This document shows positions 18,931 to 58,887 of a DNA stretch of 64,000 nt, piece after piece (the stretch's first letter is position 1; every line of letters begins with the position of its first letter). The notes under the pieces were generated by a model. That model ran no database searches, was not told the DNA's origin, and saw only the letters and a program-made list of their open reading frames with translations. This DNA is from a virus: IMG/VR virus record IMGVR_UViG_3300035698_017726, positions 1-64,000 of that record; one strand, written 5' to 3'. A program made the translations under genes and the position numbers.

Positions 18931-19992
18931 ATGATTCCACTCGATTTCCATGACGACCTCGGTAAGTTCCTGCTGGATAGCGGGGTGAACCTAGACAACG
19001 AGAAGACCGCTTCTGCCTTGCAGGGAGCTCAGTTCAAGGAGAGAGCCGAACTTCAAGACCGAGACTTCGCGCTGATCATGGTGGACTATGCCGGAGAAGG
19101 TCATCCGAAGTTCGCGTGCTACGACTCGACCATGGCCGCTATCTCTGCCGAGTATCTGCTGAAGAGGGCATGCTCCCAGCTGCCCGCACCTGCAGTGAAG
19201 GTTGCTGCCGCCAATCTGGTAGCAGTTTTAGGAGAGGACTTCAGCCCAGAGCTGACAAAGATGGCCTCCGACGAGAACGAATACCGTACCGTCATCGATG
19301 AGCGTAGAGTCTACGTCTCAGAGAGTGAAATTGACGCCGGGACGAGTGAGTTCCTCAAGTCCGCCCAGGTTGACTTAGACAGCTCCGCGTACAACAAGGT
19401 GGCCAGCGCTGGGCGGCGCTGGGCGGACCTGGATGACTGGGCGCGTAGAGAACTGGCCCTGGACGTCGTGAAGATGGCTGACGCTGCTGGGGCGCCCTGT
19501 CCTTGGACGATTCGTCAGTACGCTGGAGAGGAGCTCAGTGAAAAGTTCTCTAGCCTCTGCCGCCATCGGATGCACTACACTGCTGACAAAGAGATTCTTG
19601 ACAACTACGACCGCCTGTCCAAGATGGCCGGAGTCATGAATACTGAGGACGTCTTGGAGGCGCTCTGCCTCATCGACGAGCAGGCACAGGTCATCCCCAA
19701 GTATGGAGCCGCCCTCCCTCACCCAGTCCTCTGTGTCTATGGCCAGGAGAAGCAGGCCGAATACTCCTGGATTGAAGGTGCGGACATGGTCAACGAGTCA
19801 CAGCTAAAGGCTCTCAGTGGGTCGGCCAAGCTCTATGACATTATGGGTGACGCGTTCACCAAGGATGTCTGTGACAAGTTCCGTAAGGATCCAATGGGTG
19901 TCTTCAAGAAGTCCCCCAAGGAACTGAAGATCATCTTGGCTCGCATGGCTACCCAGTCGGGTAAGCACAATGAGGGCGGAGGTCCTGCATGA
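18931..19992 (+). CDS. Putative internal head protein rich in K-x-A motifs
   Basis: EKTAS, VKVAA, TKMAS, LKSAQ, NKVAS, VKMAD, SKMAG, EKQAE. Confidence 0.6.
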   Translation: MIPLDFHDDLGKFLLDSGVNLDNEKTASALQGAQFKERAELQDRDFALIMVDYAGEGHPKFACYDSTMAAISAEYLLKRACSQLPAPAVKVAAANLVAVLGEDFSPELTKMASDENEYRTVIDERRVYVSESEIDAGTSEFLKSAQVDLDSSAYNKVASAGRRWADLDDWARRELALDVVKMADAAGAPCPWTIRQYAGEELSEKFSSLCRHRMHYTADKEILDNYDRLSKMAGVMNTEDVLEALCLIDEQAQVIPKYGAALPHPVLCVYGQEKQAEYSWIEGADMVNESQLKALSGSAKLYDIMGDAFTKDVCDKFRKDPMGVFKKSPKELKIILARMATQSGKHNEGGGPA

Positions 19993-20786
19993 GGCCGACG
20001 CTGACCGACGAACAGACTCACCCAATCATTCTACTCCGCATACTCACCAAGAAGTATGGAGTGGACTGGATGGAGTGGCCTCCGTCCGTCCTGAAGAAGA
20101 CGCTCAATGACGACTTCAAGGTCCCCATCGCTAGGATCAACGTAGCCAAGGCCATGGCTGTGGCTTCTATCGCTACCAGAGATGAGTTCTGGACCAAGTG
20201 GGAGACTTTCCACTACCTGACTCAGGCACTGAATAACAACATCCCGCATCTCACCGAGATGCAGGACCTCGGTGTGGGCCAGATGATGGTAGCTGTGGAC
20301 ATCGCTTCTACTATCCGTAAGGAACTGAAGGAGCTCAGCAGCGAGCCAGAGTTCGCTGAGGATGTAGCCAGGTTCATTGCGGCTCAAGCCAAACACGACG
20401 GCGTCTGGTACCTGCCGGAGCCTCTGGAATTCGCAGCGGCCTATGCGGCCGGAAAGTGGTTTAGTTGTCCAGACTGTGGGTCAGAGGGCGAGGTTATTCA
20501 CGACGATGGAGTCTGCGATATCTGCACTGACCGCCTCAGCACGGAGTCCTTGGGTAGTTGGGTAAGCCATCCAGAACTACTGAAGAAGAGCTGGGGCAAG
20601 AGCATCAAGACCTTTGAAAAGAATCCCACAGCCAAGGTAAAGTCTCGACTAGAGAAGGCCCTGGCCTCTCCTAATGTGACTCTGCACGAGAACTCTGCAG
20701 ATATTTGCGCTGTCAGGCTGATTGTAGCGCTCAACTACATGGGTAAGCGCAGAGAGCAGTTGAAGGAGCAAGAGAATGCCGACTGA
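19989..20786 (+). CDS. Hypothetical virion-module protein with Zn finger
   Basis: ATGA-coupled; CPDC...CDIC. Confidence 0.65.
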   Translation: MRPTLTDEQTHPIILLRILTKKYGVDWMEWPPSVLKKTLNDDFKVPIARINVAKAMAVASIATRDEFWTKWETFHYLTQALNNNIPHLTEMQDLGVGQMMVAVDIASTIRKELKELSSEPEFAEDVARFIAAQAKHDGVWYLPEPLEFAAAYAAGKWFSCPDCGSEGEVIHDDGVCDICTDRLSTESLGSWVSHPELLKKSWGKSIKTFEKNPTAKVKSRLEKALASPNVTLHENSADICAVRLIVALNYMGKRREQLKEQENAD

Positions 20787-21702
20787 TCCCACTGTCTATT
20801 ACTACTTCTCTGAAGAGATGCAGAAAGAAGCGCTCGAAGCTGGAGCCTTCAAGGACTTTGCTGGGAGCGTCGGTAGAGATGCCTTGAACGCGGCCAAGAA
20901 AGTCCCTGAGTTCTTGTCGAGTCAAGCGGGCAACCTTGCTGCCGCAGCTACTACTAACGACGCAGGCAAGTCTCTTCCCGTCGGCGAGCAGCTGAGGAAT
21001 GTGGGTGGCGCAGCTTGGAAAGGCATCAAGGCAATTCCAGGTGCTACACTCAACACCGCTGTGGATTCTGCCAAGAACGTGACCAAGCCGCTTCGAGACT
21101 TAGTTCGGCACCCAGTAGATACGGCGCAGGCGGGGTGGGGTAAGCTCAGCCCAGGGGTGATCAAGGCCCAAGCCGCTGCCCAAGCCGCAACGCAAAATAC
21201 AGGGCGAGCATATGGGTCCACGATAGGAGATACCAATAGTCTGTCGGATAGGTTGCGTAACAGCGGCTGGTTGGCCAATGTCGCTAAGTACCAGGGCGGC
21301 GCCGAGACTGAGATTGGGGATCACCTCTCTAGAGCGAGGAACACCATCGGACGTGCGCTGCCGGGTCAGAAGGCGATCTTTACAGGCACTACTGCCTTGA
21401 GCACCGCTAATGCTCTTCGGCAAAAGGAAGACAGTAGGACGGGTAGGCAGCTAGGACTAGGAGAACGCGTAGGACGCGCCGCCGGTAGTGTAGGTGGGGC
21501 CCTGGCCATGAATACTTTTGCCCCAGGAGGCAACTTCGCAGCCCGCATGATTGGAAAGAGGTATGCAGGTAGGATGATTGGAGGAGCTACCTCTAATGCA
21601 GGTCGCGTGGTAGATACTGCGGTGAACAAGGTACGCGGTAGACTACCCCAAGATGCCGCGCAGCGACGTCTGCAGTATCCTGCTGGGTACGGAGCCAGGT
21701 AA
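20776..21702 (+). CDS. Basic Gly/Ala-rich putative cargo protein with F-SEEMQKEA leader
   Basis: N-terminal YYYFSEEMQKEA and C-terminal GxxxG stretches. Confidence 0.55.
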   Translation: MPTDPTVYYYFSEEMQKEALEAGAFKDFAGSVGRDALNAAKKVPEFLSSQAGNLAAAATTNDAGKSLPVGEQLRNVGGAAWKGIKAIPGATLNTAVDSAKNVTKPLRDLVRHPVDTAQAGWGKLSPGVIKAQAAAQAATQNTGRAYGSTIGDTNSLSDRLRNSGWLANVAKYQGGAETEIGDHLSRARNTIGRALPGQKAIFTGTTALSTANALRQKEDSRTGRQLGLGERVGRAAGSVGGALAMNTFAPGGNFAARMIGKRYAGRMIGGATSNAGRVVDTAVNKVRGRLPQDAAQRRLQYPAGYGAR

Positions 21703-30600: not shown

Positions 30601-30852
30601 GCGGCCAACAGACAGGCAAAGATGACTGGAGCCACTCCGATTCTACACAAGCCTATGCTCAAGCCAATGACAGAGATGCCGTTGGCGGGGCAGGAAGACT
30701 GGTTGGCCCGTCTTAACTACCGTCGCCTAGAGAACACGTATACTGAGGGGGCCGCCCAAGGCTGGTCCTCAGACATCCATGGGCACCCAATCGCTGGCCT
30801 CGCTCACGGCGCCGAGTTTGGGACGAAGCCATTTAAGGAGATCAAGTCATGA
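24679..30852 (+). CDS. rpoBC: Single-chain beta-beta' fused DNA-directed RNA polymerase
   Basis: Beta motifs DQTNPL, QTPE, NFEDG, GDKLTARHGNKG, GVPSRMN, KLHHMV, GGQRF. Beta' motifs SGRSTI, NADFDGD, GARKG, RSPLHC..C..CYG, GEPVTQLTMKTFHTGG. Confidence 0.97.
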   Translation: MANLNPEGAFASLKERTKDAIKAQFPYVGKKHRLELDNLEVVDSGDNPSSLYHVDNIQSQYDAKTKGRTWAVPIKADLRLVNVDTGKVMDRSSITLGRLPKLTRRYTYIIDGQERQHDSVFLLRARPYHIKTDSGAIQAKWNLAKGHGFDLTIDPSTGVMKMKVGTTNIALYPVLKAMGLSDSDLEAKWGRRVLETNKAKGKPEELLKFHRFFSRRYKGYSTPNVDEAAAFVRTTFEATELRPDAMKTAFGKEFTKVDGENLLLSSARILNISRGKEEEDDRQSLASKDLTGTEDFIVKFIARGTRDMSRKVKNNLDRADKISDIISPNMYTRTILSTFQEAQRPDQTNPLNFISGYQRTTIRGASYGGIKGERVNLDRDKQINPSHLGFLDPVQTPESQDTGVVLHLPLGVRKEGTQLKIDVYDVKKKAWVAVTPGDLEFEVVAYPDQVKWVDGKPKPIAKNVAVYDKDRQTAKRPWTSVRYILASTKGLFSFGANLIPFLGNNNGNRAMMGVKQMEQAVSLVNREQPLVQTKASKNMSFEEAVGSFSAHFSPIDGTVTSVTKDEIVIQGANRKVSRVQIYNNFPLNGGKGVLNAIAKVKRGEKVKKGQLIADTNFTENGHLALGANIRVAYIPYKGLNFEDGIVVAESAAKKLSSMHMHQNSVTIFPGMVVNKQRWADYALPELATQERMAKLDNDGVVKEGEKVKEGDILVALLAPSERTKDDEDVASIRKSLVKDYKDRSLSWDHSYPGEVVKVIRSGKKIMVHVKTEESLAVGDKLTARHGNKGIVSRILPDHEMPHTKDGNAVQVLLNPAGVPSRMNAGQILETAASKIAKKTGKPYVVENFEHGKDYTQQVKDDLKKHGLTDTEELIDAKTGRSLGQVLVGDQYLLKLHHMVEKKMTARSFGGSYNVHGTPPGGAGIPGGGQRFDQLLTYAMLAHGAKHNLREAYTFKSDADQDEVWYAVMTGRPLPDPQPTRGMKNFTTYLKAMGINTEKEGDKYVLSPMTDKQTTAISNGSLEFPEKALKAKGLRTMEEAGGLFDPRKTGGLSGQFWTHMELEERIPNPIFETAIQSLLGMKKKEFEHMVSASGGDGKRSGFEILAEQLRVIDVPSELKKTEESLPKLKGPQLAKAYRKVRYLRALKSNNVSPVDAYTNKVLPVVPPSVRRVSIGLDGSQIFDSLNGLYRSVGQINGQLKNADPSTPYSEMQAQRAHLYDAVRALRMTGMDMGEGTKSRHHFGLMEKMKGQAPKHSFFQDGVLKRRQDLSGRSTIIPEPDMGLDEVGIPLPMALELYRPFVRRELFLNRGYAPNQTGQLVDKKDPAAIEALHRVINERPVLLKRDPVLHKFGVMAFKPKIISGKAIAIHPLVTGGFNADFDGDAMSIFVPVSQEAVDEAKTKLLPSKNLFSPTHGGIMPVPGQGSLLGLYQATKWGTVTAVPTGITPTKAISMLRGGKLKPSDVITIGGKTTTPGRLLLDSELPKDMRGNKTLLYDQTFRLDKRGLKRLLTEVGKKHPKSFPRVVDAWKDHGNTLAYMNGSSITLNDIHDGKEIRDQVLKKYKLEEDSIRSSTLDRKTKDKKVVALYSKAMGELETVGNVAYTRRGDNNLHEWAASGARGGWSQFSQLVMGPMLVQDSKGKPVPVPITKSFGEGLSVPEYWASLHGARKGTLDRATETEKPGSLTKDIINTVINHHVTADDCGTDKGAAMNPMDADCTDRYLAKDVKLKGGDIIAARTLLTPPSLTRIRNSNIQKIVVRSPLHCRQASGICAKCYGLNENGKLYSVGTNVGVISGNALGEPVTQLTMKTFHTGGTVTGGGEDGDVIDKFKRVQQLFFVPKKLPGAATLATKSGTITKVVANRSLGGMDVYIDAKRHYVPAGLTLLPSVSKGLTVKRGDPLSSGPINPHSLLKETGNVNAVRAYMTDELQKTYPSGIRRRNIETVVQAMTNLTQIEAATDHPEYDRGQMLPLSQVEAANRQAKMTGATPILHKPMLKPMTEMPLAGQEDWLARLNYRRLENTYTEGAAQGWSSDIHGHPIAGLAHGAEFGTKPFKEIKS

Positions 30853-31517
30853 AGGCAGAGAAAGTAGCCTCCGCATACGCCATTGCGCTCCGAGTCAGAT
30901 CTGAGCTCGACTTCGAGAAGGCAGCGTCGTACCGCGCCAACGGACTCTCCGCCTATCAGGCGCTCTTCACTTCGATGGAGAAGGGCGCTAGCCTAGAGAA
31001 GGCGGCCATGGGGGGCATGGGCATCGGTATGGGAGGGCAGGACTGGGTAGAGCGCTTCATGGATACACCCTTCTACCAGGACGCCCTGGCGTTCGAAGCG
31101 CAGCAGGCAGAGCAGGGCGTTCAGCGTGCTCAGCGACGCGCAGAAGATCGGCAGGCCTGGGCCGAAGAGTCCCATATGGACGTCCAGCGTGCTCAGCTCG
31201 AGTCCCAGCTTGCTGGGTGGAAGCTGCAGGAAGCACAGCAGCAGGCCGCAGAGCCCGTGCCTGTAGCGTCCGGCGGTCCTCCTCCTCCAGGAGCCGAAGG
31301 TGAGCTACCTCCCGTAGAGCCCCCGGCCCCAGAAATGAACGCTCCTGCTCCTGCTGCAGCTATGCAGCAGGCACCTCCCGAAGCAGGTCCTCCTGCAGGA
31401 GGGCCACCCAAGATGGCCGGAGTCCTCGGTATTTTGGACAAAGAGCGGGAGAAGAAGGCTAAGAAGGCTAAAGGTAAAGACGGTAAGCTCAGCGAGTTCC
31501 TGAACTCCAGGAAGTAA
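30849..31517 (+). CDS. K-x-A-rich, Pro/Gln-rich putative internal protein
   Basis: ATGA-coupled to the RNAP gene; EKVAS, EKAAS, EKGAS, EKAAM, PKMAG. Confidence 0.6.
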   Translation: MKAEKVASAYAIALRVRSELDFEKAASYRANGLSAYQALFTSMEKGASLEKAAMGGMGIGMGGQDWVERFMDTPFYQDALAFEAQQAEQGVQRAQRRAEDRQAWAEESHMDVQRAQLESQLAGWKLQEAQQQAAEPVPVASGGPPPPGAEGELPPVEPPAPEMNAPAPAAAMQQAPPEAGPPAGGPPKMAGVLGILDKEREKKAKKAKGKDGKLSEFLNSRK

Positions 31518-44861: not shown

Positions 44862-45740
44862 ATGAGCTGGAACAGGTCCATCACAGAGAGTGACCTCAGA
44901 AGCATGGCTTCCGAGGCTACCTCCCTACACCTAAACGATGGCATCCCACTCACTGATTCAGTGGTAAAGGTCGCCAGTGATAAGAACAATCTCACGTCTG
45001 AGCACCTGCGCAGAGTTTGTGAAATGACCTATCACGATACGTATGAGCGCATGTTCCGAGACGGAGAAGGCAGCGATAGATACGTGAGCTTCGACCCTCC
45101 TGATGCTGATGCGGTGATCCAGTCCGTAAATGGTGATGAAGCCAAAACAGCATCCGTTCCTTGGAGAGCTACCGGTATGACTCCTACTCCTTATGCAGAA
45201 AAGACCGCCTCAGTTGGTGTCCGCCGCTTTGTTCCAACTAACGCCTTCGACGCGTTGGTAAAGTCTGCTGAGGCTCCCGAGTCCAGCTGGGCTGACCCGA
45301 CTGGCGAATTACGTAGGCTTCGGAACCACATGAAGGAGGCCATGCTCGAGCTAGACTCGCGGGTAGGTAGAACTACCGCTGCGGTCAAGATTGCCGAGTA
45401 CGAGCTCTTCTCCCATGCGGACCAGGCCTGTAAGCAGGGCCATCCAGTGGACCGAGTTCTGTCTGTCTGCCTTGGTGGGCTAGAGAAGGAAGGTCACGCT
45501 ACCTCTCCCTCGGGCCAAGACGTACTTCACACTCTGGCAGAGAACCTACTCCAGAGCGGTTGGTCGCATGAAAAGACTGCTGCTGTTGAAGGAGAGGTGA
45601 ACACTTCTCACCCCATCGCGGTGACCAGTGTTAAACTGGCGGAGTTGAAGAGCCAGAGAGAGCACCTCGAGCTTTCTCTCGGTTTCATCCGTGAAGACTT
45701 CGACCGTGCCAACGAGGAACTCCTTGCCCTGCTCACATGA
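44862..45740 (+). CDS. K-x-A-rich head core protein
   Basis: VKVAS, AKTAS, EKTAS, VKSAE, VKIAE, EKTAA, VKLAE. Confidence 0.65.
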   Translation: MSWNRSITESDLRSMASEATSLHLNDGIPLTDSVVKVASDKNNLTSEHLRRVCEMTYHDTYERMFRDGEGSDRYVSFDPPDADAVIQSVNGDEAKTASVPWRATGMTPTPYAEKTASVGVRRFVPTNAFDALVKSAEAPESSWADPTGELRRLRNHMKEAMLELDSRVGRTTAAVKIAEYELFSHADQACKQGHPVDRVLSVCLGGLEKEGHATSPSGQDVLHTLAENLLQSGWSHEKTAAVEGEVNTSHPIAVTSVKLAELKSQREHLELSLGFIREDFDRANEELLALLT

Positions 45741-45960: not shown

Positions 45961-46986
45961 ATGATTTCTGCTGATGTATACCAGGACCAAGCGAAAGGGA
46001 TTCTGACCGAGGACGATGTTAGTGAGGTGGAGCAGTTCTCCGCCATGCTCAAGTCTGCGGGAGTTCCTCCTCCGATCCCCACTCCAATCGAGGCCGCTCC
46101 TCCGGCGGCCTTCCACGGAGGCGAGGCCCAGCAGCAGGGGAACAACGCGCAGACAGCCATGATGACCGGACTGCTGCAAGGAGTTGGAGCGGCTGGAGCT
46201 GGCCTCATCGGTCATGGCGCCACTAAGGGTATTCGCGCTGCTGGAGAGAAGCTGACCAGGGGCCGGGACCTGAAGAAGGCCCTCGACGTCTATCCGCACC
46301 TCAACGACCAGTACTCTCCTGAAGATGTGAAGCTAGTCTGGAACTCTCTACGACATCTGAATCCTTGGCTGACCAAGGACCCTCTGACTGCTGGGACTCT
46401 TCTAGGACAAACTCTTCGCAATAGAGACGTTCAGAACCCATCTGCTGCTCCTCGTATGGACCTAGGTATCGCTAAGGAACTTGTCCGTACCGAGCCCGCT
46501 AGGCAGGACCCAATGTCCCAGGCCGTGGTCGGCGGACTCCAGACCGGAGTCTCCGAAGGTGTACGTACTTACGGCAACCTCCAAGCAGGGAAGGCTCAGG
46601 CACAGCAGCGCGTTGAAGACCATTTCAACCGTCAAAGCATCTCGGATAGGGACCTTGACCTTAGAGGTCAGCAGCAGATGGAGATGGAGGGCTTCAAGGA
46701 TCGGCTCGGAGCTTACGGAGATAGAGCCACCCAGGGACAGAAAGACCAGATGGCTATGGAGGCGGAGAAGTCGCGCCTCAAGCGCCAAGGTGTTGAGACA
46801 GGGCTCGACGATCCTATGTCCAGAAGCGATACGGACTCCGTTCTTCTCCAAGCAGCTCTACGGGGGGATGCTCCTCTTGTTGAGCCTACTGCCAATGCTG
46901 GGGGAGAGGTTACTGGACAGCGTCGAGCCTGGCCGCCCCCTCCAAGAGTTCAAATGCCTCCTCCAGGAGGCAGAGGAACTTCGTAA
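45961..46986 (+). CDS. Putative internal virion protein with GxxxG helix
   Basis: FSAMLKSA leader; GLLQGVGAAGAGLIG. Confidence 0.6.
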   Translation: MISADVYQDQAKGILTEDDVSEVEQFSAMLKSAGVPPPIPTPIEAAPPAAFHGGEAQQQGNNAQTAMMTGLLQGVGAAGAGLIGHGATKGIRAAGEKLTRGRDLKKALDVYPHLNDQYSPEDVKLVWNSLRHLNPWLTKDPLTAGTLLGQTLRNRDVQNPSAAPRMDLGIAKELVRTEPARQDPMSQAVVGGLQTGVSEGVRTYGNLQAGKAQAQQRVEDHFNRQSISDRDLDLRGQQQMEMEGFKDRLGAYGDRATQGQKDQMAMEAEKSRLKRQGVETGLDDPMSRSDTDSVLLQAALRGDAPLVEPTANAGGEVTGQRRAWPPPPRVQMPPPGGRGTS

Positions 46987-48867
46987 ATGGAAAAGTACTT
47001 CACCTGTCCAGGCTCGGTAGCCGGTGGGTTTCCACTCATCCATAGGATTGAGCCGGGAACCCGCTACGGGATGGGTGAAACTAATGGCCTGTGCAAGACC
47101 GCTTCCGAAGAGCATCTCCCTGAGGTGATGGAGCTGGTCGAGTCCATCAAAGCCAAGCCCGATAGGCTGTACCTTCTCAACAGTGCCCTCGGTGCAGGTG
47201 AGAAGGTTGGCTTCAACCTCCGGGGTGACTGGTTCACAGAAGAGGGACTGACCCACGAGCCTGAGGGCTGGAAAGAAACCCCTGTTTGGGATATCGACGG
47301 CCGTAGACAGCTGGCCAACTCTGCCGAGAAAACAGCTAGTGGGGGGAAGTTGGCCTGGGGATATCCCACTTTCTACAACGCACATAAGTTCCGCCATCAT
47401 GTAAACAAAGACCCAGACAGAGCTTACGGTTTTGTCCTAGGTGCCTTCTGGGACCCCAGAATGCGTCGGGTTATCTTGGTGTCCGAGCTCATCAAGGGAA
47501 TGTGTGACCGTCTTGGCGCTAGCGATCTATACAGTCGCATCGCTGACGGTGAGTTCCCGGATACATCCATGGGGGCCAAGGTACCCTGTGACCGCTGTGC
47601 GATTTGTGGCCACACCGCTAAGACCCCAGCTCAATACTGTAAGCATGTAAAGAAGAACGCCGAGCATCCTTATGGAATGGGAAACCTTCTGGACGATGGC
47701 CGTCGGTGTGGCGTCTACAACGACCATCCTCGCTTCTTTGACGATTCTTACGTGTTTATTGGAGCTGAGCGCTCGGCCAAGAACATGACGAACCTTACGG
47801 ACAAGGTGAAGGGAGAGAAGCCTTACAGCCGCAAGGTCTACAAGTACACCTCCTCCAAGAGCAAGAAGGCATCGGCCGAAGAAGAGCACGGTCTTCCCGA
47901 GACCAAGAGGCCTGACCTCAACCTCGAGACGAAACTCAATGAGGTCATCAAACAGCTCCCAGTTACTTCCCCCAGAGAGCGGGCCATCCTCAACTACCTA
48001 GTTGAGATGCGCCTAGCAGACAATGCAGTGGCTAAGGGAGTGATGAGTCAGGGAGAACGCACTCTCATGGAGCTCATCAGTAGCCGTAGAATCGAGCGGG
48101 AGCATGGAGCACCCAAGCAGTCGATGGAGCATCTAGAGAAGATCCTAGATACCAAATTCAACGCTATCTACGGTGACCACCATAAGCGGGCCTCGGCTAA
48201 ATGGGCCGAAATGATGAAAGAGATCCCCGCTCCGGCTATTGGGGTGGCCACTGACATAGAGTCCCTGGGTAAGCAGCTTCCTTCTCTGACAGAGGAACAG
48301 CTGGATTACATGTCTCAGAACCCTATCGGAACGCTAAAGGCCGCCGCTGCACTGGGAGTAGTGCTGCGTCCGGAAGAGTTCCAGCACGTTGTACTGAAGC
48401 AAGCCAACGCCGAACTTCTCCAAGGAATGGAAGATAAGGGCGAGGTCTTTGCACCCGAACGACTGGATCCCGACAAGGATTCAAGTTTTGACTACCGCGA
48501 CGGCATCACCAAACAGATGGTATCTGGTATGCAGGAGATGCTCGAAGACGTCACAACCAACGGCCTTCCATTCCTCCTAGAGCGGTCATTTTCCCCGCAG
48601 GCTTGCCGAATCCGCATGGTGAAGACCATAGATGTGGATGAGAAGCCAAAGTGTGCGGAGGTCAGGACCCCAGCTCTAGATAAGGTCGCTCATCTTTACA
48701 ACGAATATCGTTGTGGGTTAGTCGCAAACAAGCCAGATTGGAGGGCAATAGATGCGCCCCATTCCGGCGGCGACCTACTATATGAGGAGAAGCTGGCTGT
48801 GGCTGCTCACGAGACTTCAGATCTTCTTCTTTGCCTTGCCTATTGGCCGGCCATGCGCGTAGGATAA
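46987..48867 (+). CDS. Prohead (capsid maturation) protease, assemblin-like, with Zn finger
   Basis: N.RGD.F, F.HH, SMG, CAICG..YC.H, N..P.FFD.S.V..GA; lies upstream of the scaffold and MCP genes. Confidence 0.75.
   Translation: MEKYFTCPGSVAGGFPLIHRIEPGTRYGMGETNGLCKTASEEHLPEVMELVESIKAKPDRLYLLNSALGAGEKVGFNLRGDWFTEEGLTHEPEGWKETPVWDIDGRRQLANSAEKTASGGKLAWGYPTFYNAHKFRHHVNKDPDRAYGFVLGAFWDPRMRRVILVSELIKGMCDRLGASDLYSRIADGEFPDTSMGAKVPCDRCAICGHTAKTPAQYCKHVKKNAEHPYGMGNLLDDGRRCGVYNDHPRFFDDSYVFIGAERSAKNMTNLTDKVKGEKPYSRKVYKYTSSKSKKASAEEEHGLPETKRPDLNLETKLNEVIKQLPVTSPRERAILNYLVEMRLADNAVAKGVMSQGERTLMELISSRRIEREHGAPKQSMEHLEKILDTKFNAIYGDHHKRASAKWAEMMKEIPAPAIGVATDIESLGKQLPSLTEEQLDYMSQNPIGTLKAAAALGVVLRPEEFQHVVLKQANAELLQGMEDKGEVFAPERLDPDKDSSFDYRDGITKQMVSGMQEMLEDVTTNGLPFLLERSFSPQACRIRMVKTIDVDEKPKCAEVRTPALDKVAHLYNEYRCGLVANKPDWRAIDAPHSGGDLLYEEKLAVAAHETSDLLLCLAYWPAMRVG
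48836..48865 (+). promoter_or_regulatory. Candidate sigma70 promoter
   Basis: TTGCCT-N18-TAGGAT ahead of the scaffold-like gene. Confidence 0.4.
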
Positions 48868-48949
48868 ACACTGACTCGCTGTGGCCGAGGGGCCTGCCTG
48901 TCCCTGTAGACGCCCTGACTACAAATCATCCATTCCCCGAGAGACCAAA

Positions 48950-49924
48950 ATGTCCCTGATGGAAACCCTAAGAGAGCAAGGCGTCACTGCTGAAGATCTC
49001 GAGAAGGCCGCCTCTGTGCGCCTGTTCGAGAAGGTAGCTGCGTCGGAAAGCGTAGACCTCAACTCCCTCAACGAAGCCCAAGTGAACGAGCTGTACGCTC
49101 ACTTCACAGAGAACGTCCTTCCCGGTATGGGCGGAGACGAAGCCCCAGCTGCCGCAGCCGAAGAGGCTCCCGCTGCTGATGCAAAGACCGCAGCGTATCA
49201 GACAGCTGCTACCACAGTTCTGTTCCTCAAGCAGGCTAGTGACGAAAAGATCGATGTCGCTAAGATGGACCAAAGCGAGCTGGACGGCCTCTACGCTCAC
49301 TTCACAGAGAACGTTCTCCCTGGCATGCTCCAGGAAGATGCGCCTACTGGCGAGAAGGATGCAGGAATGCGTCCCCCCACCGTCTACCTCTTCGAGAAGA
49401 TGGCAGCCGCCGAAAAGATCGATTTGGGAGCAATGTCCGATGACGACCTTGGTGGTCTCTACGGTCACTTCCTGAACGACGTTCTTCCTGGAATGCTTCC
49501 TTCTGAAGAAGCTGCTGCTCCAGAAGCTGCTGCTCCAGAGAGCAAGACTGCTTCTGCTGAAGACGTAGAAGAGGCCGCAGCCAAGCTGGCCGAAGCCGAT
49601 ATCCTTGGACGTCAGATGGCCGGTAGCTTCATGGCCGAGCTCAACAAGCAGGCCTCCGGCCTTCCTCCCTTCATGAAGAAGGATGAGGACAAGGATGAGG
49701 ACAAGGACGAGAAGGACAGCAAGGACAAGAAGGAAGACAAGGACGAGAAATGCGCGTCCTCTCCTCTCTTCGAGAAGCTGGCCGACGACCGCGCTGCTGA
49801 GATTCTTCAGGCCAATGGCGTAGACGCTGCAGCTGCTCCGGCAGATGAGCCCCAGTTCGACGACCTAGTCACTGCTCGAGCAGTAGAGAAGCTCAAGGGC
49901 CTCGGCTACCAGTTTGAGGAGTAG
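48950..49924 (+). CDS. Acidic scaffold-like protein with three internal repeats
   Basis: Three copies of LF.K.A..E.[VI]D...LY.HF...VLPGM; 11 K-x-A sites. Confidence 0.65.
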   Translation: MSLMETLREQGVTAEDLEKAASVRLFEKVAASESVDLNSLNEAQVNELYAHFTENVLPGMGGDEAPAAAAEEAPAADAKTAAYQTAATTVLFLKQASDEKIDVAKMDQSELDGLYAHFTENVLPGMLQEDAPTGEKDAGMRPPTVYLFEKMAAAEKIDLGAMSDDDLGGLYGHFLNDVLPGMLPSEEAAAPEAAAPESKTASAEDVEEAAAKLAEADILGRQMAGSFMAELNKQASGLPPFMKKDEDKDEDKDEKDSKDKKEDKDEKCASSPLFEKLADDRAAEILQANGVDAAAAPADEPQFDDLVTARAVEKLKGLGYQFEE

Positions 49925-50178: not shown

Positions 50179-51039
50179 ATGAGCCGGAATCAATCAATGA
50201 TCGACGAAGCTCTGGAGCACGCCAAGCAGAGACTAGGCGCCGCCGGCTCCAGGGACTCCGAAAAGACCGCTTCTTCTACCCCGGACTTCGTTAAAGAAGC
50301 CACAGAAGTAGCCAATGCTCTAGAGTTCGTAGCCCGTAGCACCGTCGACGACGGTACTCCGCAAGCTCCCCACAACCAGAGCATCCTAGACGACTTCTTC
50401 AAGGGCGCCGCAGGCAAGAAGGGGCCCGCAGCTGGGTCCACTGATGCCGGTGGCACTCAGCAGCAGCCTCCAGTAGCCGGTAAGACCAAGATGCCCATTG
50501 GCAACACCGGAGCTACCAATCCAGAGAACAGTGAGTCTCCCGAAGGCGTGATGGGCCGCGATAAGTTCAAGCAGGAGCCCCCTGCCGTCAAGAAGCCTCC
50601 CCTGGATGGCGGCGGTAAGCAGGCCGGTCTCTCCATGTTCGACATTCTGATGTCGCAGCAAACAGAGAAGGAAGCTGCTGGTGGCGGACCCAAGGAGTTC
50701 TCATCTACTGATGCGGCTCCAGGCATTCCAAGCAAGAACGAGAACTCCAATCGTGATGCTCTCCTAGGCAGCAATGAAGCTCCGGTCAGCGCAACCAAGC
50801 GCGAAGCCAAGAAGCCCACCCGTGCTCGCCTTGCCGAAGTCTTTGCGCACACCCACGACACCGTTGGTGACGCTACGGCCAAGGCTGTGTGGCCCAATGC
50901 CGCTCAGAAGGGCGACATGAAGATCGCCGGTGCCAAGGAAGGATCCCTCTACGAGTTCAGTGAGCTCTTCGACCTCGCCTCAAAGGGTGAGCTTGGTAAG
51001 GAAGCTCAGGTCTGGGCCGCGCAAGTAGAGAGTATGTAA
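50179..51039 (+). CDS. K-x-A-rich disordered internal protein
   Basis: EKTAS, VKEAT, GKQAG, EKEAA, MKIAG; AAGGA SD. Confidence 0.65.
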   Translation: MSRNQSMIDEALEHAKQRLGAAGSRDSEKTASSTPDFVKEATEVANALEFVARSTVDDGTPQAPHNQSILDDFFKGAAGKKGPAAGSTDAGGTQQQPPVAGKTKMPIGNTGATNPENSESPEGVMGRDKFKQEPPAVKKPPLDGGGKQAGLSMFDILMSQQTEKEAAGGGPKEFSSTDAAPGIPSKNENSNRDALLGSNEAPVSATKREAKKPTRARLAEVFAHTHDTVGDATAKAVWPNAAQKGDMKIAGAKEGSLYEFSELFDLASKGELGKEAQVWAAQVESM

Positions 51040-51042: not shown

Positions 51043-52797
51043 ATGGCTGCTCCAACCCTTTCAGTTGCCCTACAGCGGGGGAAGAAGACTTTGTTCAAGA
51101 AGCCTTCTCCTCAGCAGGGTGAGGTACCTGGAAAGGTTGCGGACATGGCCAATCCGACTACGTCCCAGTTGGACCTGCTGAACACCGTTCCGTCCGCAAG
51201 GATGGATCGGTATAAGCAGTACCTTCAGGGACACGCAGAGGCTCCGCCTATCGATGTTGTAGAGAAGGCTAGTCCAATTGCCCAAGCCGGAAGAGGCATA
51301 GGCACGGTAGCCGGGTCGGTGATTGGGGCCCCCGTCTCTGCCGTTGCTCGTTTGGGTGGTAGAGAGAGAGCACTCAGCGCGTTTAAGTCCACTCAAGGCC
51401 TAGGCGCGGATATAGGTGGTCGTCTTGGTGGGTTCGTAGGAACTGAGGCGCTAAAGGCCCAGGAAGCGAAGAGATCTCTTCGTGCCCAAGAAGCTGAGAG
51501 AGCTCTAGGGTCAGACGACCTACAAGCGAATATGGAAAACGCGGTCTGGAGTCAGCAGCTAGGCCAGAACAACACTCGTGGTGCGGCGCAAGACAAGGCT
51601 GACCTCGAAAAGGCCCGGATGAGGACCAAGCTTCTCAGCCAGGGGATGAACCTGTATGGTAAGTCTGTAGCCGGCGGTGGCCTACCTTCAGCACCTATAG
51701 ATTCCGGCCCAGGGATCGGAGAGCAGCTTAAAGACGCATTCAACTCCGTGAGGGGCTCCGTGACTGGAAAAACTGCTGGAATCGGCGAACCTAGTCAAGA
51801 TCAGTTGGATCTTCTGAATACGCATCCATCCATGCGCGCAGATAAGTACAAGCAGCATCTGCAGGGATACGTAGACCGCCCTCAGATTGACCCGGAGTCA
51901 GGGGTTGGAACGGGTAGAGTGACCGGCGGTGTTACCGGTGGGCTACTCGGAGCAGGACTTGGAAGTATTGTTGCTAGCGGCAACCCTTTGGCTGGCGCAG
52001 CTGTTGGTGGCGTCGCCGGTGCGGGTCTTGGTGCTTGGGGCGGCGGGTCTCTGGCGCGCAGTAATGCCCAGAGCACCAATGAAGATAACGCCATGTGGTC
52101 CGAGCACGCCAAGGAGCTCCTTGGTAACGAGGACCTCACTCCTCACATGGAGAACGCCGTCTGGAGACAACAGCAGCACCAAACCCAGATGCGAGAAGAG
52201 CAGGAAGCTGAAGAGCGGCAACGTCGCCAGGAGATGACGGCTAAGCTAGTCGGCCAGGCCATCGATGCCTATAAGGACCGGGGAACCCCACAGCCCGCTC
52301 TGCTACAAGAAGCTGCTCCTGCGCAAGAGCCAATGCACGTTGACCCTAGGTCGAGCTTTGGTTCTCCTCCCCCTGATGAACGTGCTCCCAAACTCAAAGA
52401 ACGAGCACCTAAGCTCAAGGCTAAGGACTCAAATCGCCCACTAGGCGATGAGGACATTCCTTCCTGGGCAGAAGACAAAGACGCGTTCCGCGCCGCACAG
52501 AAAGAAGTAGAGGGGTACAAGGCTGCGTCTCTACGTGACTACGCACAACTTTATGAATTTGCATCTACCGGTGAGCTAGGTAAAGAAGCTCAAGCGTATA
52601 TCACTGGCTTCGCCCAGCTAGTTGATGGTAAGCTTGGCAAACCATATCTCACTAAAGTCGCCGATGAAGCTTCAGTCCAAGAGTCTGCAGAGGATGCGAA
52701 AAAGCGTAGGCTTTCTTCGCTTCTGAAGAAGCAGGCACCTTCTGGGACTGTGACAGGATCGGCATCCCCGAACCCACCAATGGGATACCTACAATGA
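51043..52797 (+). CDS. Tandem glycine-zipper polyprotein-like protein
   Basis: Two homologous modules (QLDLLNT...MENAVW) separated by GKTAG. Confidence 0.65.
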   Translation: MAAPTLSVALQRGKKTLFKKPSPQQGEVPGKVADMANPTTSQLDLLNTVPSARMDRYKQYLQGHAEAPPIDVVEKASPIAQAGRGIGTVAGSVIGAPVSAVARLGGRERALSAFKSTQGLGADIGGRLGGFVGTEALKAQEAKRSLRAQEAERALGSDDLQANMENAVWSQQLGQNNTRGAAQDKADLEKARMRTKLLSQGMNLYGKSVAGGGLPSAPIDSGPGIGEQLKDAFNSVRGSVTGKTAGIGEPSQDQLDLLNTHPSMRADKYKQHLQGYVDRPQIDPESGVGTGRVTGGVTGGLLGAGLGSIVASGNPLAGAAVGGVAGAGLGAWGGGSLARSNAQSTNEDNAMWSEHAKELLGNEDLTPHMENAVWRQQQHQTQMREEQEAEERQRRQEMTAKLVGQAIDAYKDRGTPQPALLQEAAPAQEPMHVDPRSSFGSPPPDERAPKLKERAPKLKAKDSNRPLGDEDIPSWAEDKDAFRAAQKEVEGYKAASLRDYAQLYEFASTGELGKEAQAYITGFAQLVDGKLGKPYLTKVADEASVQESAEDAKKRRLSSLLKKQAPSGTVTGSASPNPPMGYLQ

Positions 52798-53162
52798 CTG
52801 TAAAGCTAGGATCGACACAGATCTCTGCAGTAGCTGCTCGGGGTGCCCAGACTATTCGCTCTCTGACAGAGAAGGCAGCTTCTTTGGATTCTGAGAACGA
52901 CGGTCTGCGTCAGGAACTGGCCGATCTGAGGCGTGATGCTCGCATCAGCAAGATCGCGTCGGAGATGGACGACAAGGGCCTTCAAGCAGACATGACCTTC
53001 GAAGAGAAGGTTGCAGCTCTCCGTGAACATGACAATCTCGACCTTGCAGAAGAGGCCGTGAAGTTTGCTTCTTTCGCCGTTCCGCTGGCTACCGTCTCTG
53101 AAGATGGGCCTACGGAGAATCAGGGCGGAAGTCTTCATGGCTATCTTGTGACAGGCGGATAG
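52794..53162 (+). CDS. Small coiled-coil scaffold-like protein
   Basis: EKAAS, SKIAS, EKVAA, VKFAS; precedes the capsid genes. Confidence 0.6.
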   Translation: MTVKLGSTQISAVAARGAQTIRSLTEKAASLDSENDGLRQELADLRRDARISKIASEMDDKGLQADMTFEEKVAALREHDNLDLAEEAVKFASFAVPLATVSEDGPTENQGGSLHGYLVTGG

Positions 53163-53802: not shown

Positions 53803-54960
53803 ATGGATTACACTGCTGAAATGGTCAACTCCGGCTTCCTAGAGAGACTGGACACCGATGGCCCCACTAAGGTGGCCGCCAACACCCTCAACTACATCAA
53901 GGACAGGTTGCGTGAAGCGAGCTTCGCCGACATGATCGTCCCCGCTCAACGTGTTGTGCGTGGCGATCTACAGCGTAGTACCGAGCACGACACCATGGTC
54001 AAGATCGTGGACATCGAGCCCGGCTCACGCGCCATGAGCTTGAACTTCCGTGGCCAGCCCGAGGCCGTGTACATCACCGGTAAGCGCTATGCGATCACCT
54101 TCTGGACCATCTCGTCCATGAAGTTCGAGATCGTCGAGCAGGAGCTGATGGCGTACGAGATGCCTGTGACCAAGATCATTGAGGAGAACAGCCTCAAGGA
54201 TATGGTTGAGGTAAAGGACCGCGAGTTCCTGTACCACGTCGAGGCCTGCATCGAAGCTATGCAGAGTGAGGGTAATGCTGGCGCCACCGCGTTCAACACC
54301 ACGAACGTGAACCTCGGTCCCGCGACCGTGGTTGGTGTTTCCAAGCTGAAGGGCGAGCTCGCTCTCCAGCAGGTGACTGACGACTTCGTGTCGTACGCCA
54401 TCTCCCGTCCTGACATCGTCAAGATCAAGAAGCTGCTCAAGCGTCAGATTCTGGATGCCGCCGGTAACGTCGTGCGCCAGGGACGTCTCAAGCCAGCTCT
54501 GATGCTGATGACTGAGTCGGACACCGATGACTTCGACCAGTGGACCCATGAGGACTTTGGTGACAGGCTCCAGTCTGACACCACTACCGACGGGTACACC
54601 TACAACAAGGTCCTAGGTCTGCGCATCATCCGCACGATCAAGAACGACATCCTTCGTGAAGGCAACGTCTACATCTTCACCAGCCCTGAGTTCTTCGGTA
54701 GGAACTACATCCTCAACGATGTGAAGTTCTATATCGACAAGATCGCTAACCGGATCTTCTGGCAGGCCTGGATGGACATTGGTATGGGCTTCGGAAACAT
54801 CGCTTCCGTAGTCAAGCTTGAGCTCTACTCTGGCTCCACCATCACTGGTGCTACCGATACCGGCTTTGCGGCTGCCATCCCGGTTGAGGAAGAGGAAATC
54901 GGAGCTCAGAACAACAAGGCTGCAGACGGTCTGACCTTCCCCAGCATCACCGTCTACTAG
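53803..54960 (+). CDS. Major capsid protein (HK97 fold)
   Basis: 385 aa, AAGGAG SD, strongly C-ending codons and a downstream terminator; position after protease and scaffold; DRLRE.SF...E.KDREFL. Confidence 0.8.
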   Translation: MDYTAEMVNSGFLERLDTDGPTKVAANTLNYIKDRLREASFADMIVPAQRVVRGDLQRSTEHDTMVKIVDIEPGSRAMSLNFRGQPEAVYITGKRYAITFWTISSMKFEIVEQELMAYEMPVTKIIEENSLKDMVEVKDREFLYHVEACIEAMQSEGNAGATAFNTTNVNLGPATVVGVSKLKGELALQQVTDDFVSYAISRPDIVKIKKLLKRQILDAAGNVVRQGRLKPALMLMTESDTDDFDQWTHEDFGDRLQSDTTTDGYTYNKVLGLRIIRTIKNDILREGNVYIFTSPEFFGRNYILNDVKFYIDKIANRIFWQAWMDIGMGFGNIASVVKLELYSGSTITGATDTGFAAAIPVEEEEIGAQNNKAADGLTFPSITVY

Positions 54961-56245: not shown

Positions 56246-56246
56246 A

Positions 56247-56753
56247 ATGCTAGGCTTAGGTCCCACTATTGCGGTTCCTACGGCAAGCGCCCGCATGAAC
56301 GAGCTGATTGCACGCATTCGGCTCTTCACGCGGGACTTCCCCGAACTGAACCGACTCATCAAGGGTGAAGAGTCCAGCGACCGTATGATCGCTTGGGCGA
56401 TCATCGACACCCTTGATGATTGGAACTCCACCCCTCCATTTCTAAGCATGGCCGCATCCATTTCCAACTTCCCCTCGGAGCACTTGTTGGTCCGAGGGGC
56501 AGTCTGCTGTCTCCTAGAGAGTGTCGGTCTTCTTCAGACCCGGAACCACCTTCAGTTCTCTGATGGTGGCCTGTCTGTGTCGATCTCCGACAAGGCTCCG
56601 CTCATCATGAACTGGATTCAGCTCTTCAGAACGCAGTACGAGCAGAAGAAGCTCCGCATGAAGACGGCTATCAACATTGAGATGGCCTTCGATGGATCAG
56701 GAACCTTCTCAGAGTACTTCGCCGTCAACGGAATCTATATGGGAGCGTTCTAA
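56247..56753 (+). CDS. Head-tail adaptor (neck protein 1)
   Basis: IRLFTRD...FSDGGLSVS...W helical pattern; synteny. Confidence 0.65.
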   Translation: MLGLGPTIAVPTASARMNELIARIRLFTRDFPELNRLIKGEESSDRMIAWAIIDTLDDWNSTPPFLSMAASISNFPSEHLLVRGAVCCLLESVGLLQTRNHLQFSDGGLSVSISDKAPLIMNWIQLFRTQYEQKKLRMKTAINIEMAFDGSGTFSEYFAVNGIYMGAF

Positions 56754-57322
56754 TGCCCAAAGACATCCCGAACACCATCTGGAAGGCTGATGACCCTCTA
56801 GAGCGTAAAGTCCATGCTGCCGAGTATTGGTCCGAGCTCACAGGTAGAGATGAGTCCGCTAAGCGTGAAGCTGAGAGAGTTCCCTCTCCGCACGATGACG
56901 CTGAGGTGGAGTACGAGGATGGAGGGCACACCTTCGAAGATGAGAAGGATGCCTCTGTCCCTGAGGACCTGAAGGCACCGCTAGTTGGTGGAGCTATTGG
57001 GGGCACACTCGGTGCTGCTTCTGGGGCTGCTCTCGGCTACCACAATAGCCGTCCCGGTGCCGACGGTAAGAGCCGCTCCGAGATAGGAAGAGAGCGGAAG
57101 CTCAGGGATCATCTCGAAGACAAAGAGCGGGCCGGTAAGGCTCCAGGGCTTCGGGCCAAGTATCACCAGATGATGCTGAACGAGGCCGTCAAGAACAGGA
57201 AGTCTCCTCTTCGCGGAGCTCTAGGCACTGCCGTAGGAGTAGGAACTGTAGGAGCACTCAGCGGAGCTGGAGTCGGCGCTGAGTATCAAGGGGCTAAGAG
57301 TGATCACGCTTCGGAACTGTAG
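56753..57322 (+). CDS. Glycine-zipper protein with EKDAS site
   Basis: Acidic N-terminal part, EKDAS, then two Gly zippers. Confidence 0.6.
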   Translation: MPKDIPNTIWKADDPLERKVHAAEYWSELTGRDESAKREAERVPSPHDDAEVEYEDGGHTFEDEKDASVPEDLKAPLVGGAIGGTLGAASGAALGYHNSRPGADGKSRSEIGRERKLRDHLEDKERAGKAPGLRAKYHQMMLNEAVKNRKSPLRGALGTAVGVGTVGALSGAGVGAEYQGAKSDHASEL

Positions 57323-58169
57323 GGTCGTCTCCTTTAGCAGGGAGTACATGGATATCTTCTGGGAGGTTGAACCTACCAACGAGGATATCCAGGCCTTCGA
57401 GTTTTACGTGGAGCGGTCAGAAGCGGAAGCCGGACCTTGGCAGCAGATTGCGGGTCCCCTTATCGACAGGTACTACGTCAGAGACGACAGCGCGCCACAG
57501 CTCTACGTCGCTAGAAGGATGTTCTACCGAGTAAAGGTACGGAATACGCTACAGGGTTGGGAGTCTTACTCCGACGTCCTCATTCGTGAGGGAGAACGTG
57601 ACCTTATCTCTGAAGAGATTGTGCGCGCTGAAGCCGTCCTCTTCAGAGAGTTCGTAGGCCGCAAGTGTTGGATGTTCCCCGTACGCACCTTCGGCCAGAG
57701 ATGCCCTCAGTGCTACGACAAGGTGATGCAGAAGGCTACTGACGACAGATGCCCCACATGTTGGGGTACTGGCTACTCCGGAGGCTATCACTACCCTATC
57801 GCCTTCTGGGCGCAGCTGGATGAGGGAGAGGAGTCCATCTCGGCTGCCTCCGACCATCACAGCATGATACTGAACTTTACCATCAGAACTGGACCGTCTC
57901 CTGGGATGAAGCCAGGGGACCTGATCATCGATAATCTCAATAGACGGTCTAGAGTGCTTTCTTACTCCAGTACTCGCCGTTTAGGAGTACCTGTTAGGCA
58001 GGAATGCCGTATGGTTATGGTTCAGCCCAACAGCGTAGAAGACGCCATTCCTCTGCGCGTAGACCACGAAGACGAGGTGTTGGTGCCGCCTAGGAACTTT
58101 ACGAATCCCCAGTGTCTAGAAAGCGCTGACTCAAGCGTAGACGATATACTCGATAAGTATGGGTACTGA
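57300..58169 (+). CDS. Head closure/neck protein 2 with Ig-like N-domain and Zn finger
   Basis: W...FYVERS..YRVK, CPQC..CPTCWGTG, KPGDLII. Confidence 0.65.
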   Translation: MITLRNCRVVSFSREYMDIFWEVEPTNEDIQAFEFYVERSEAEAGPWQQIAGPLIDRYYVRDDSAPQLYVARRMFYRVKVRNTLQGWESYSDVLIREGERDLISEEIVRAEAVLFREFVGRKCWMFPVRTFGQRCPQCYDKVMQKATDDRCPTCWGTGYSGGYHYPIAFWAQLDEGEESISAASDHHSMILNFTIRTGPSPGMKPGDLIIDNLNRRSRVLSYSSTRRLGVPVRQECRMVMVQPNSVEDAIPLRVDHEDEVLVPPRNFTNPQCLESADSSVDDILDKYGY

Positions 58170-58887
58170 GATGTCTGAAGAGCCTAAGACCAAGATTCAG
58201 ATTCCATGGAAGACTCATCTGACCAACGCCGGTTTGGTGGGCCTCAGCATGGGTGGTGGCTATGCTGCCGGATCCTTGGCTGGGTACGGACTGGCTAAGA
58301 TTCCTGCGGTTCGTGACCAGTGGCACAGCATGACGCCCAAGGAAAGAGCGACGTTCAAGGGAGTAGCTCTAGCGGGTCTTTCTACTGCAGCAGGTACCGC
58401 TGCAGGTTTAAGGCGTATGGGCACCAATGCTCGCATCAAGAAGTCCATGCTGGAGATGGAGAAGGCTGACAGGGAAAAGGATAGCCTCCAGAAGGAAGCT
58501 GGGGCCGTCTTCACTCAGGCATTCATCTCTGAAGTAGAGAAGATCGCAGAGCGCGAGCTCTCTGAGATGGAGAAAGAGGCCATTGTCCAGGCCGTCAAAG
58601 ACATAGCAAGTAGGGGCAAGCCCCTCTTAGCGGCAGGCATGAAGGCTGTAACAAAGGCCGCTCCAAACCTAGTCCAAGGAAGCGCCTCCAGTCCTGCCGA
58701 GGCCATATCAGGCGGGATAAAGGACGTAGCCTCTCGACTTACCCATACTGCTCCCCGTCCTCATGGAGGAGTAACCCAGTTAGCCTCTCGTCAGCTAGCT
58801 AAGAAGGGCCCAGTAGCTGGAATCGGCAAGGCCCTGAATTGGAGTGCTCCCGCATTCGGGCGCTTTGCGATGGAAGCCGCTACATGA
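58159..58887 (+). CDS. Two-module Gly/Ala-rich cargo-like protein
   Basis: Internal QKEAG-AFISEVEKIA-EKEA junction. Confidence 0.6.
   Translation: MGTEMSEEPKTKIQIPWKTHLTNAGLVGLSMGGGYAAGSLAGYGLAKIPAVRDQWHSMTPKERATFKGVALAGLSTAAGTAAGLRRMGTNARIKKSMLEMEKADREKDSLQKEAGAVFTQAFISEVEKIAERELSEMEKEAIVQAVKDIASRGKPLLAAGMKAVTKAAPNLVQGSASSPAEAISGGIKDVASRLTHTAPRPHGGVTQLASRQLAKKGPVAGIGKALNWSAPAFGRFAMEAAT

Follow-up and report, generated by a model that had tools for sequence, protein, structure and literature searches.

The window analysed here is the first 64 kb of the 114.8-kb IMG/VR record IMGVR_UViG_3300035698_017726 (completeness 62% by CheckV; GC of the window about 56%), and a head module occupies its plus-strand block of 18931 to about 55000. 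Within this module we studied gene 46987 (genes are called here by their first nucleotide), whose product is a predicted prohead protease, together with a short motif, K-x-A, that recurs in the head proteins and that we propose as the code read by this protease. The genes run from the terminase (41043) through 44862, 45961, the protease gene and the scaffold-like 48881 and 50179 to the capsid gene 53803, and Salmonella phage Arash has the identical order of head genes in gp220-226. Most other proteins of the block had no PHROG or Pfam match. The protease, the capsid protein and the sites within them are as follows:

46987..48867, plus strand: predicted prohead protease, 626 aa, 12 K-x-A sites (phrog_18299 head maturation protease, E 1.6e-6)
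47095..47103, plus strand: K37-T-A39, site on the N-terminal side of the catalytic domain, invariant in 19/19 aligned homologues
47395..47568, plus strand: candidate catalytic H137/H138 and S194, invariant columns in 19 homologues, with S194 in P-D-x-S-M-G-x-K-V-P
47863..47871, plus strand: K293-K-A295(-S), linker site just after the catalytic domain, 60-67% conserved amid flanks of 12% identity
53803..54960, plus strand: major capsid protein, 385 aa (phrog_2522, E 3.2e-5; tblastn match to the Vibrio phage D69 capsid gene)
53869..53877, plus strand: K23-V-A25 near the capsid N-terminus, invariant in 10/10 non-redundant orthologues

The longest open reading frame (ORF) of the capsid gene begins 35 codons early (53698-53802) and overlaps 53229-53792; alignment of orthologues set the true start at 53803, the M36 of the longer frame. 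Numbered from this corrected start, the T-K-V-A-A that the initial annotation had placed near residue 25 lies at residues 22-26, and K23-V-A25 is the predicted end of a 25-aa capsid leader. The equivalent site is K27-E-A in Arash gp226 and in Vibrio D69.

The protease encoded by 46987

The match to phrog_18299 was the only sequence-profile match of 46987, and a profile search of PDB sequences with the protease family returned none. In the AlphaFold2 (AF2) model, an N-terminal gp21-fold catalytic domain (approximately residues 40-292) is followed by a C-terminal helical, scaffold-like domain. Among 48,161 chains compared by VIA-align, the best was T4 gp21 (5jbl_A; Z 7.4, root-mean-square deviation 3.9), with 139 of 165 residues aligned to residues 16-258 of the model. 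Foldseek gave the comparison with gp21 a probability of 0.72-0.82 and a template-modelling (TM) score of 0.46-0.50 on the target, with the Kaposi's sarcoma-associated herpesvirus (KSHV) protease 47th in its list, and the BFVD matches of the model comprised phage G gp19, phiRSL1, PaBG and many models labelled prohead protease. The catalytic domain thus has, with moderate strength, a herpesvirus-protease-like fold. As in our reference class, the gp21/assemblin-fold prohead serine proteases (MEROPS clan SH: S77, S78, S80 and S21), the gene sits in the head module and adjoins scaffold and major capsid genes.

The candidate catalytic residues H137/H138 and S194, suggested by their invariance, are 56-57 residues apart, similar to the spacing of His85 and Ser140 in T4 gp21. 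Conserved with them is a Cys/His cluster (C204, C207, C218 and H220). A Hint/LAGLIDADG intein is present in many of the homologues with lengths of 900-1400 aa, at the equivalent of C204, ten residues past S194, a type of location typical of inteins. Examples are L040:9893-13207 and the proteins P0021 and P0035, the last of which also has an inorganic pyrophosphatase domain. The family is very large: at E <= 1e-3 it has 3607 cluster representatives (50% identity), and at E <= 1e-30 it has 1291.

Copies of K-x-A mark the borders of the catalytic domain. K37-T-A39 lies in a segment of the model with a predicted local distance difference test (pLDDT) score below 50, and an N-terminal K-x-A was present in all 27 of the 27 anchorable N-complete family representatives, compared with 4.8 expected, in the context G-L-x-K-T-A-S. 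K293-K-A295 falls in the low-pLDDT segment 257-307, and the conserved protease sites at 37, 293, 400/405 and 602 are all in linkers of pLDDT <50 between structured parts. In the locus L035:9959-11772 two genes, of 302 and 298 aa, encode the protease, and AGGAGG-N4-ATG stands at their junction. The break falls in the linker where other loci have their conserved K-x-A past the catalytic domain, and the second gene begins M-A-E-C-K-K-A. The model and these alignments support the identification of 46987 as a gp21-fold prohead protease with conserved motif copies at its own domain borders.

The K-x-A motif in head proteins and their relatives

We compared each protein with 1000 within-protein shuffles that kept its composition, the check for which the initial annotation had called. 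K-x-A exceeded the shuffles 2- to 7-fold in about ten plus-strand head-module proteins, with z of 2.0-6.9 per protein, and the form K-x-A-[SAG] reached z values of up to 3.3-8.1 in these carriers. For 18931, 30849, 35210, 44862, 46987, 48881 (then 48950), 50179 and 52794 in turn, we counted 10, 7, 9, 8, 12, 11, 7 and 4 sites; the earlier hand counts (8, 5, about 8, 7, about 10, 11, 7 and 4), offered as evidence that the motif is dense in head proteins, were slightly low and right in substance. The carriers and proteins with early sites are:

18931..19992, plus strand: 353-aa protein; 10 K-x-A observed, 3.2 expected (z 4.3), the first at residue 25
30849..31517, plus strand: Ala-rich protein, 222 aa; 7 observed, 2.9 expected (z 2.7); K-x-A-[SAG] z 3.3
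32738..35149, plus strand: 803-aa protein; N-terminal site at residue 23, not enriched overall
35210..36697, plus strand: internal protein, 495 aa; 9 observed, 2.4 expected (z 4.5)
44862..45740, plus strand: substrate-like protein, 292 aa; 8 observed, 1.2 expected (z 6.9)
45961..46986, plus strand: 341-aa protein; N-terminal site at residue 31, 100% conserved, flanks 21% identity
46987..48867, plus strand: the protease; 12 observed, 4.0 expected (z 4.3)
48881..49924, plus strand: Ala/Glu-rich scaffold-like protein; 11 observed, 4.5 expected (z 3.4), 9/11 followed by S, A or G; K-x-A-[SAG] z 7.2
50179..51039, plus strand: second scaffold-like or internal protein; 7 observed, 3.6 expected (z 2.0); K-x-A-[SAG] z 3.6
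51043..52797, plus strand: 584-aa protein with a lysin-like segment at residues 287-392; first site at residue 31
52794..53162, plus strand: 122-aa protein; 4 observed, 0.8 expected (z 3.8), 4/4 followed by S or A; K-x-A-[SAG] z 8.1

An unbiased scan of 1600 dipeptides at gaps of 0-3, run on all plus-strand genes located in 18931-58887 with no other criterion for choosing them, found K-x-A 119 times against 74.3 expected (z 5.7), outscored only by CxxC and GxxxG. The pairs that followed were E-K, K-xx-S and E-xx-A, which rank high as pieces of E-K-x-A-S; no x-E pair was among the top pairs, and the remaining genes gave nothing comparable to K-x-A. The motif had originally been assigned to 18931-58887: the signal holds from 18931 to 54960, and there is nothing special in 55002-58887. 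CxxC is strongly over-represented across the window on both strands (11 against 0.9 and 16 against 1.9), which points to many small zinc-ribbon-type motifs across the genome.

Two further genes of the block served for comparison:

24679-30852, plus strand: single-chain beta-beta' RNA polymerase, 2057 aa (PHROG RNA polymerase matches)
41043-42839, plus strand: large terminase (phrog_675, E 2e-60)

From the letters alone, the motif had appeared sparse in the polymerase, the terminase and the neck genes. The polymerase, although its gene sits within the head module, is context rather than substrate: it has 6 K-x-A where 13.1 are expected (z -2.1), a depletion that fails multiple testing, is suggestive only and was not seen in Arash gp216. 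The terminase was not enriched (1 compared with 1.4 expected), and in the tail and neck genes after 55002 and the rest of the 114.8-kb record (the other 50 kb) K-x-A was at expectation. Two large proteins of the window, at 59700-63998 and 35-2611, are very Lys-poor (0.9% and 1.6% K, respectively); the former has a weak tail-sheath-like segment (phrog_279, E 4e-5), and both are probably tail or fibre components.

The specificity of the pattern was examined in a motif-contrast set, the proteins of which were picked partly by motif, so that only contrasts within it count. Here K-x-A had z 9.1, K-x-A-S occurred 28 times against 2.2 expected and E-K-x-A 27 times against 2.7, whereas R-x-A, K-A, K-xx-A, K-x-S and K-x-G were not enriched. 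As measures of motif enrichment rather than of enzymology, [SAG]-x-E had z -0.3, A-x-E z 0.6, [LI]-x-E z 2.9 and [VL]-x-A z -1.4, with [VL]-x-A-S at 5 against 4.7 expected. The T4-, phiKZ-, SPN3US- and herpes-type motifs and the A-x-A of signal peptidase were rejected as candidates, not being enriched in the carriers. The residue before Lys was Glu 33 times (8.1 expected), with Leu favoured one residue further upstream, and the residue after Ala was Ser 30 times (7.3 expected), then Ala or Val. S, A or G came next at 56% of sites in substrate-like proteins and at 29% elsewhere (Fisher p 0.001). At the DNA level, AAR-NNN-GCN occurred 84 times in frame compared with 2-3 times out of frame, the sites use 34 different middle codons with normal synonymous codon use, and Tandem Repeats Finder (TRF) detected no tandem DNA repeats beneath them; on these grounds we rejected a DNA-level cause. 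Read from the translations, the motif is a protein-level signal, roughly L-E-K-x-A-[S/A/G].

Sites tend to lie early in these proteins. The first K-x-A is at residues 23-42 in the capsid protein, the protease, 18931, 32738, 44862, 45961, 48881, 50179, 51043 and 52794, and K-x-A occurs within residues 18-60 in 17 of the 31 head-block proteins, compared with 7.8 +/- 2.3 expected, a number reached in 0 of 2000 shuffles; the other genes showed no such bias. In Arash, gp220, 221, 223, the protease gp222 and the capsid protein gp226 have their first sites at residues 21-32. Two small proteins at 23682-24011 and 36699-37013 (109 and 104 aa) have a common M-x-Y-T-L-x-K N-terminus followed by an early K-x-A and may be paralogous small head proteins. 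Cuts at K-x-A would divide the scaffold-like proteins into predicted fragments of 9-60 aa and would leave larger site-free pieces of 241 aa in 35210 and 236 aa in 51043. The claim of a polyprotein releasing many modular cargo peptides goes beyond this evidence, and 'polyprotein' is a misnomer, as these are separate genes with N-terminal leaders and multi-site linkers.

Individual sites are conserved where their surroundings are not. In 48881, which has a repeated unit K-x-A-S...L-F-E-K-x-A and predicted fragments of 9-51 aa, the Lys of the motif is 77% conserved compared with 8% for other Lys residues, and sites 102 and 159 are 100% conserved amid flanks of 12-15% identity. The same full conservation was seen at site 29 of 50179 (flanks 18%) and site 238 of 44862 (flanks 26%), and sites 27 and 72 of 52794 are 88-100% conserved. 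Orthologues of 44862 are the most enriched ORF in most relatives, as is gp220 in Arash. The 32738 protein has strong-form sites E-K-A-A-S at 451 and P-K-M-A-S at 653. In 51043 the lysin-like segment (phrog_1047 tail-associated lysin and relatives, E 3.7e-4) lies within the 236-aa site-free fragment, and, like Arash gp8, the protein may act on the cell wall as an internal or ejected hydrolase.

The confidently modelled beta-rich core of 35210 (residues 69-292, pLDDT 76-91) is free of K-x-A, with conserved sites on either side of it at 58 and 299 and six further sites in the C-terminal helical part; in the AF2 model, 5 of the 9 sites fall in the part of pLDDT below 50, which makes up 24% of the residues. 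Distant orthologues have an extra N-terminal region of about 170 aa. The 35210 protein was also considered as an alternative, trypsin-like protease and rejected, its BFVD matches being faint (probability 0.1-0.35) and its family having no invariant His, Ser or Cys; a VIA-align search with the model was dominated by the C-terminal helical hairpin and not by the beta core.

A protease-based search gave 40 related IMG/VR loci with 26-64% protease identity. Nearly all have about twice the expected K-x-A in their plus-strand genes, with the excess in the same orthologous proteins, and among the 34 loci large enough for pair ranking K-x-A is the top x-gapped pair in 26 and one of the three highest in 31. 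L-x-K ranks first in the most distant subgroup, indicating L-x-K-x-A. A megablast of the head module against phage records returned no match, and tblastn found as cultured relatives only Salmonella phage Arash, Vibrio phages D69, D148 and D181 and, distantly, phage G. K-x-A ranks first in Arash gp218-226 (46 against 21.3 expected, z 6.1) and in Vibrio phage D69 (51 against 22.4, z 6.6), where K-xx-S is second. In phage G, whose gp19 is a distant relative of the protease, enrichment is weak (z 2.8, rank 14), so the code cannot be extended to that phage.

Among non-redundant orthologues, joint conservation of Lys and Ala in K-x-A was 0.51 (rank 2 of 128), compared with 0.165 over all a-x-b pairs, and the sole higher pair, F-x-K, is part of L-F-E-K-x-A. 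Many sites are 65-100% conserved amid flanks of 12-30% identity, and this site-level conservation persists across orthologues 27-50% identical, in otherwise divergent linkers. At the conserved sites Lys is kept in 287 of 320 cells and replaced by Arg in 7, Ala is kept in 284 of 320, with Ser or Gly in the rest, the middle residue varies freely, and S, A or G comes next in 62%. The motif co-occurs with the 46987 protease family across very divergent loci. These comparisons strongly support K-x-A as a functional, selected short motif tied to head assembly.

Possible roles of the motif

K-x-A is probably the recognition and cleavage code of the 46987 prohead protease. The initial annotation had this enzyme cutting after K-x-A; of that proposal a selected motif and a gp21-fold protease stand, and we infer the cut itself, its bond and its enzyme. 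Known proteases with the gp21 fold recognise a-x-b motifs, and their targets are scaffolds, N-terminal leaders and the proteases themselves (PMC5694885, PMC10052503). By this analogy, 46987 would be built into the procapsid before acting and would cut itself at the sites bracketing its catalytic domain (K37-x-A39 and K293-x-A295) and at further sites in its tail. Leaders of 23-42 residues would be removed from the capsid protein and internal head proteins, the scaffold-like 48881, 50179 and 44862 would be chopped into peptides of about 10-60 aa able to exit the shell, and site-free folded cores, namely 35210 residues 61-298 and the lysin-like core of 51043, would be left intact. The a-x-b spacing suggests Lys as P3 and Ala as P1, with S, A or G as P1' and a cut K-x-A|S, in keeping with the P3-x-P1 reading by this fold, and small residues at the presumed P1 and P1' fit the way gp21-fold proteases read substrates. 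If 46987 does read K-x-A, we lean, by that analogy, modestly towards a scissile bond after Ala.

Several observations weigh against this assignment. The match to the fold is moderate (Z 7.4), reflecting a mean pLDDT of 62 for the model; no Pfam family, including Peptidase_U9/S77, S78 and S80, matched the 46987 protein at E <= 0.01 or 19 protease homologues at E <= 1, and hhalign of the family profile with T4 gp21 was not significant (probability 0.1). The capsid site has conserved sequence on either side, with E or Q at P1' in the distant subclade, which could indicate a structural role. Non-substrate proteins hold 69 K-x-A sites at chance frequency, so the tripeptide alone cannot define a cut. 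The virion proteome of Arash has 100% peptide coverage of gp221 and gp223 with processing unmentioned (PMC10585845), which points to some uncleaved protein in that sample, although as many as 116 proteins were present in it, ribonucleotide reductases among them. Neither the Arash paper nor its supplement (gene table) reports cleavage or gives data at the level of peptides. Among gp21-family phage proteases, every characterised one found in the literature cuts after Glu. Within the limited literature searched we found no description of a K-x-A specificity or motif for phage proteases: the PaBG paper notes virion protein processing and gives no motif, and the jumbo-capsid paper of Hua et al. has no cleavage sites.

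That the excess is a by-product of composition or secondary structure, arising from Lys/Ala/Glu-rich helices or diverged internal repeats with no specific function, is already disfavoured, and we consider it very improbable. Several carriers are indeed Ala- and Glu-rich and largely helical, and 48881 has internal repeats, yet the shuffles preserve composition, no tandem repeats lie in the DNA, and helices predict i+3/i+4 pairs, whereas neither K-xx-A nor K-A was enriched, on which ground we rejected a helical or compositional artefact. Conservation of sites in diverged linkers, and the same top pattern in most testable loci and in two groups of cultured phages, also speak against it. A selected motif could instead be one that is never cut and that serves as a contact in procapsid assembly, for example by drawing scaffold and internal proteins to the portal, to the capsid protein or to one another. 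We think this unlikely: 8-12 copies per protein in low-order linkers are typical of cut sites and not of one docking helix, the protease has conserved copies on either side of its catalytic domain, and small residues at the two central positions, then Ser, fit a scissile bond. Such docking would nevertheless account for the longer conserved context in which the motif often occurs (L-F-E-K-x-A, and F-x-[DE]-x-L...K-x-A in the capsid leader) and for the full peptide coverage of the Arash scaffold-like proteins, and a capsid-targeting sequence would also be expected to show the N-terminal bias. Because targeting and cleavage are coupled in T4, docking is compatible with a cleavage code.

The sites could also be cut and read differently, either after Lys (K|x-A-S, trypsin- or HK97-like) or by another protease of host or phage. 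Lys and Ala are equally invariant, P1 is the most selective position in many proteases, the link between enzyme and substrates here is inferential rather than experimental, and the 35210 core faintly resembles trypsin-like folds. The chances of such a reading seem to us low. The gp21/assemblin fold reads P3 and P1 with a free P2, which is the observed spacing; R-x-A is not enriched and Lys is rarely replaced by Arg, unlike what trypsin-type pockets would give; the 35210 family has none of the invariant residues of such an enzyme; and the motif travels with the 46987 family. A K-x-A code read by 46987 could, more tentatively, belong to a herpes-UL26-like lineage of protease-scaffold fusions, in which a Lys-x-Ala|Ser code governs programmed release of internal head cargo proteins and peptides. 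That extension is doubtful; its cargo might include the lysin-like enzyme and partners of a virion RNA polymerase.

Comparison with known systems

To our knowledge, what is known of capsid maturation proteases in tailed phages comes from a handful of models, and the codes mapped in large phages all end in Glu. Lys-x-Ala(-Ser), if confirmed, would be a new specificity class in the same fold, with an Ala|Ser bond shared with herpesviruses. The mature capsid, scaffold and internal or ejected proteins would then be predictable from sequence in a large, barely annotated clade that takes in the 40 IMG/VR loci, >3,600 protein clusters and the orphan phages Arash and Vibrio D69, D148 and D181. The gain in annotation would be direct, since the protease family has no Pfam model, and under a UL26-like reading substrates and mature ends could be predicted across thousands of uncultured large phages.

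Birnavirus VP4 and similar proteases cut [S/T]-x-A|[S/A], and the peptides stay in the particle. The proposed phage system would resemble them in its Ala/Ser scissile-bond chemistry and serial trimming to small peptides, but VP4 has an unrelated Lon-like Ser-Lys dyad fold and acts in an RNA virus on a true polyprotein. The herpesvirus assemblin (UL26/UL80a), with the consensus [V/L]-x-A|S, is fused to scaffold and is released at an R site after the catalytic domain, with an M site near the C-terminus. It has the same superfamily fold as 46987, and the likeness extends to a protease-scaffold-like fusion, to sites after the catalytic domain and near the C-terminus that resemble the R and M sites, and, if the cut is after Ala, to Ala at P1 and Ser at P1'. 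At P3, however, the phage motif has Lys and not Val or Leu, so that only the A-S half of the consensus is common to both, and the phage has many more sites and substrate proteins.

The closest likeness is to T4, phiKZ and SPN3US, whose codes are [L/I]-x-E (gp21), [S/A/G]-x-E (gp175) and A-x-E (gp245), respectively (PMC5694885, PMC10052503). T4 gp21 is the best structural match of 46987, the protease gene adjoins scaffold and capsid genes, and a three-residue a-x-b motif recurs at many sites in scaffold and internal head proteins and at apparent self-processing sites in the protease; N-terminal leaders of head proteins are removed in those phages. A virion-associated RNA polymerase, present in the relative Arash with its halves as separate genes that gave the most abundant virion mass spectrometry signals (PMC10585845), is a further likeness to this group. 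The 46987 protein nevertheless has no detectable sequence similarity to T4 gp21, is three times longer and has a C-terminal helical domain and a Cys/His cluster. Separate proteins with leaders and multi-site linkers follow the T4/phiKZ pattern under a different code: those enzymes cut after Glu, whereas here Lys and Ala are conserved and Glu-type motifs are not enriched.

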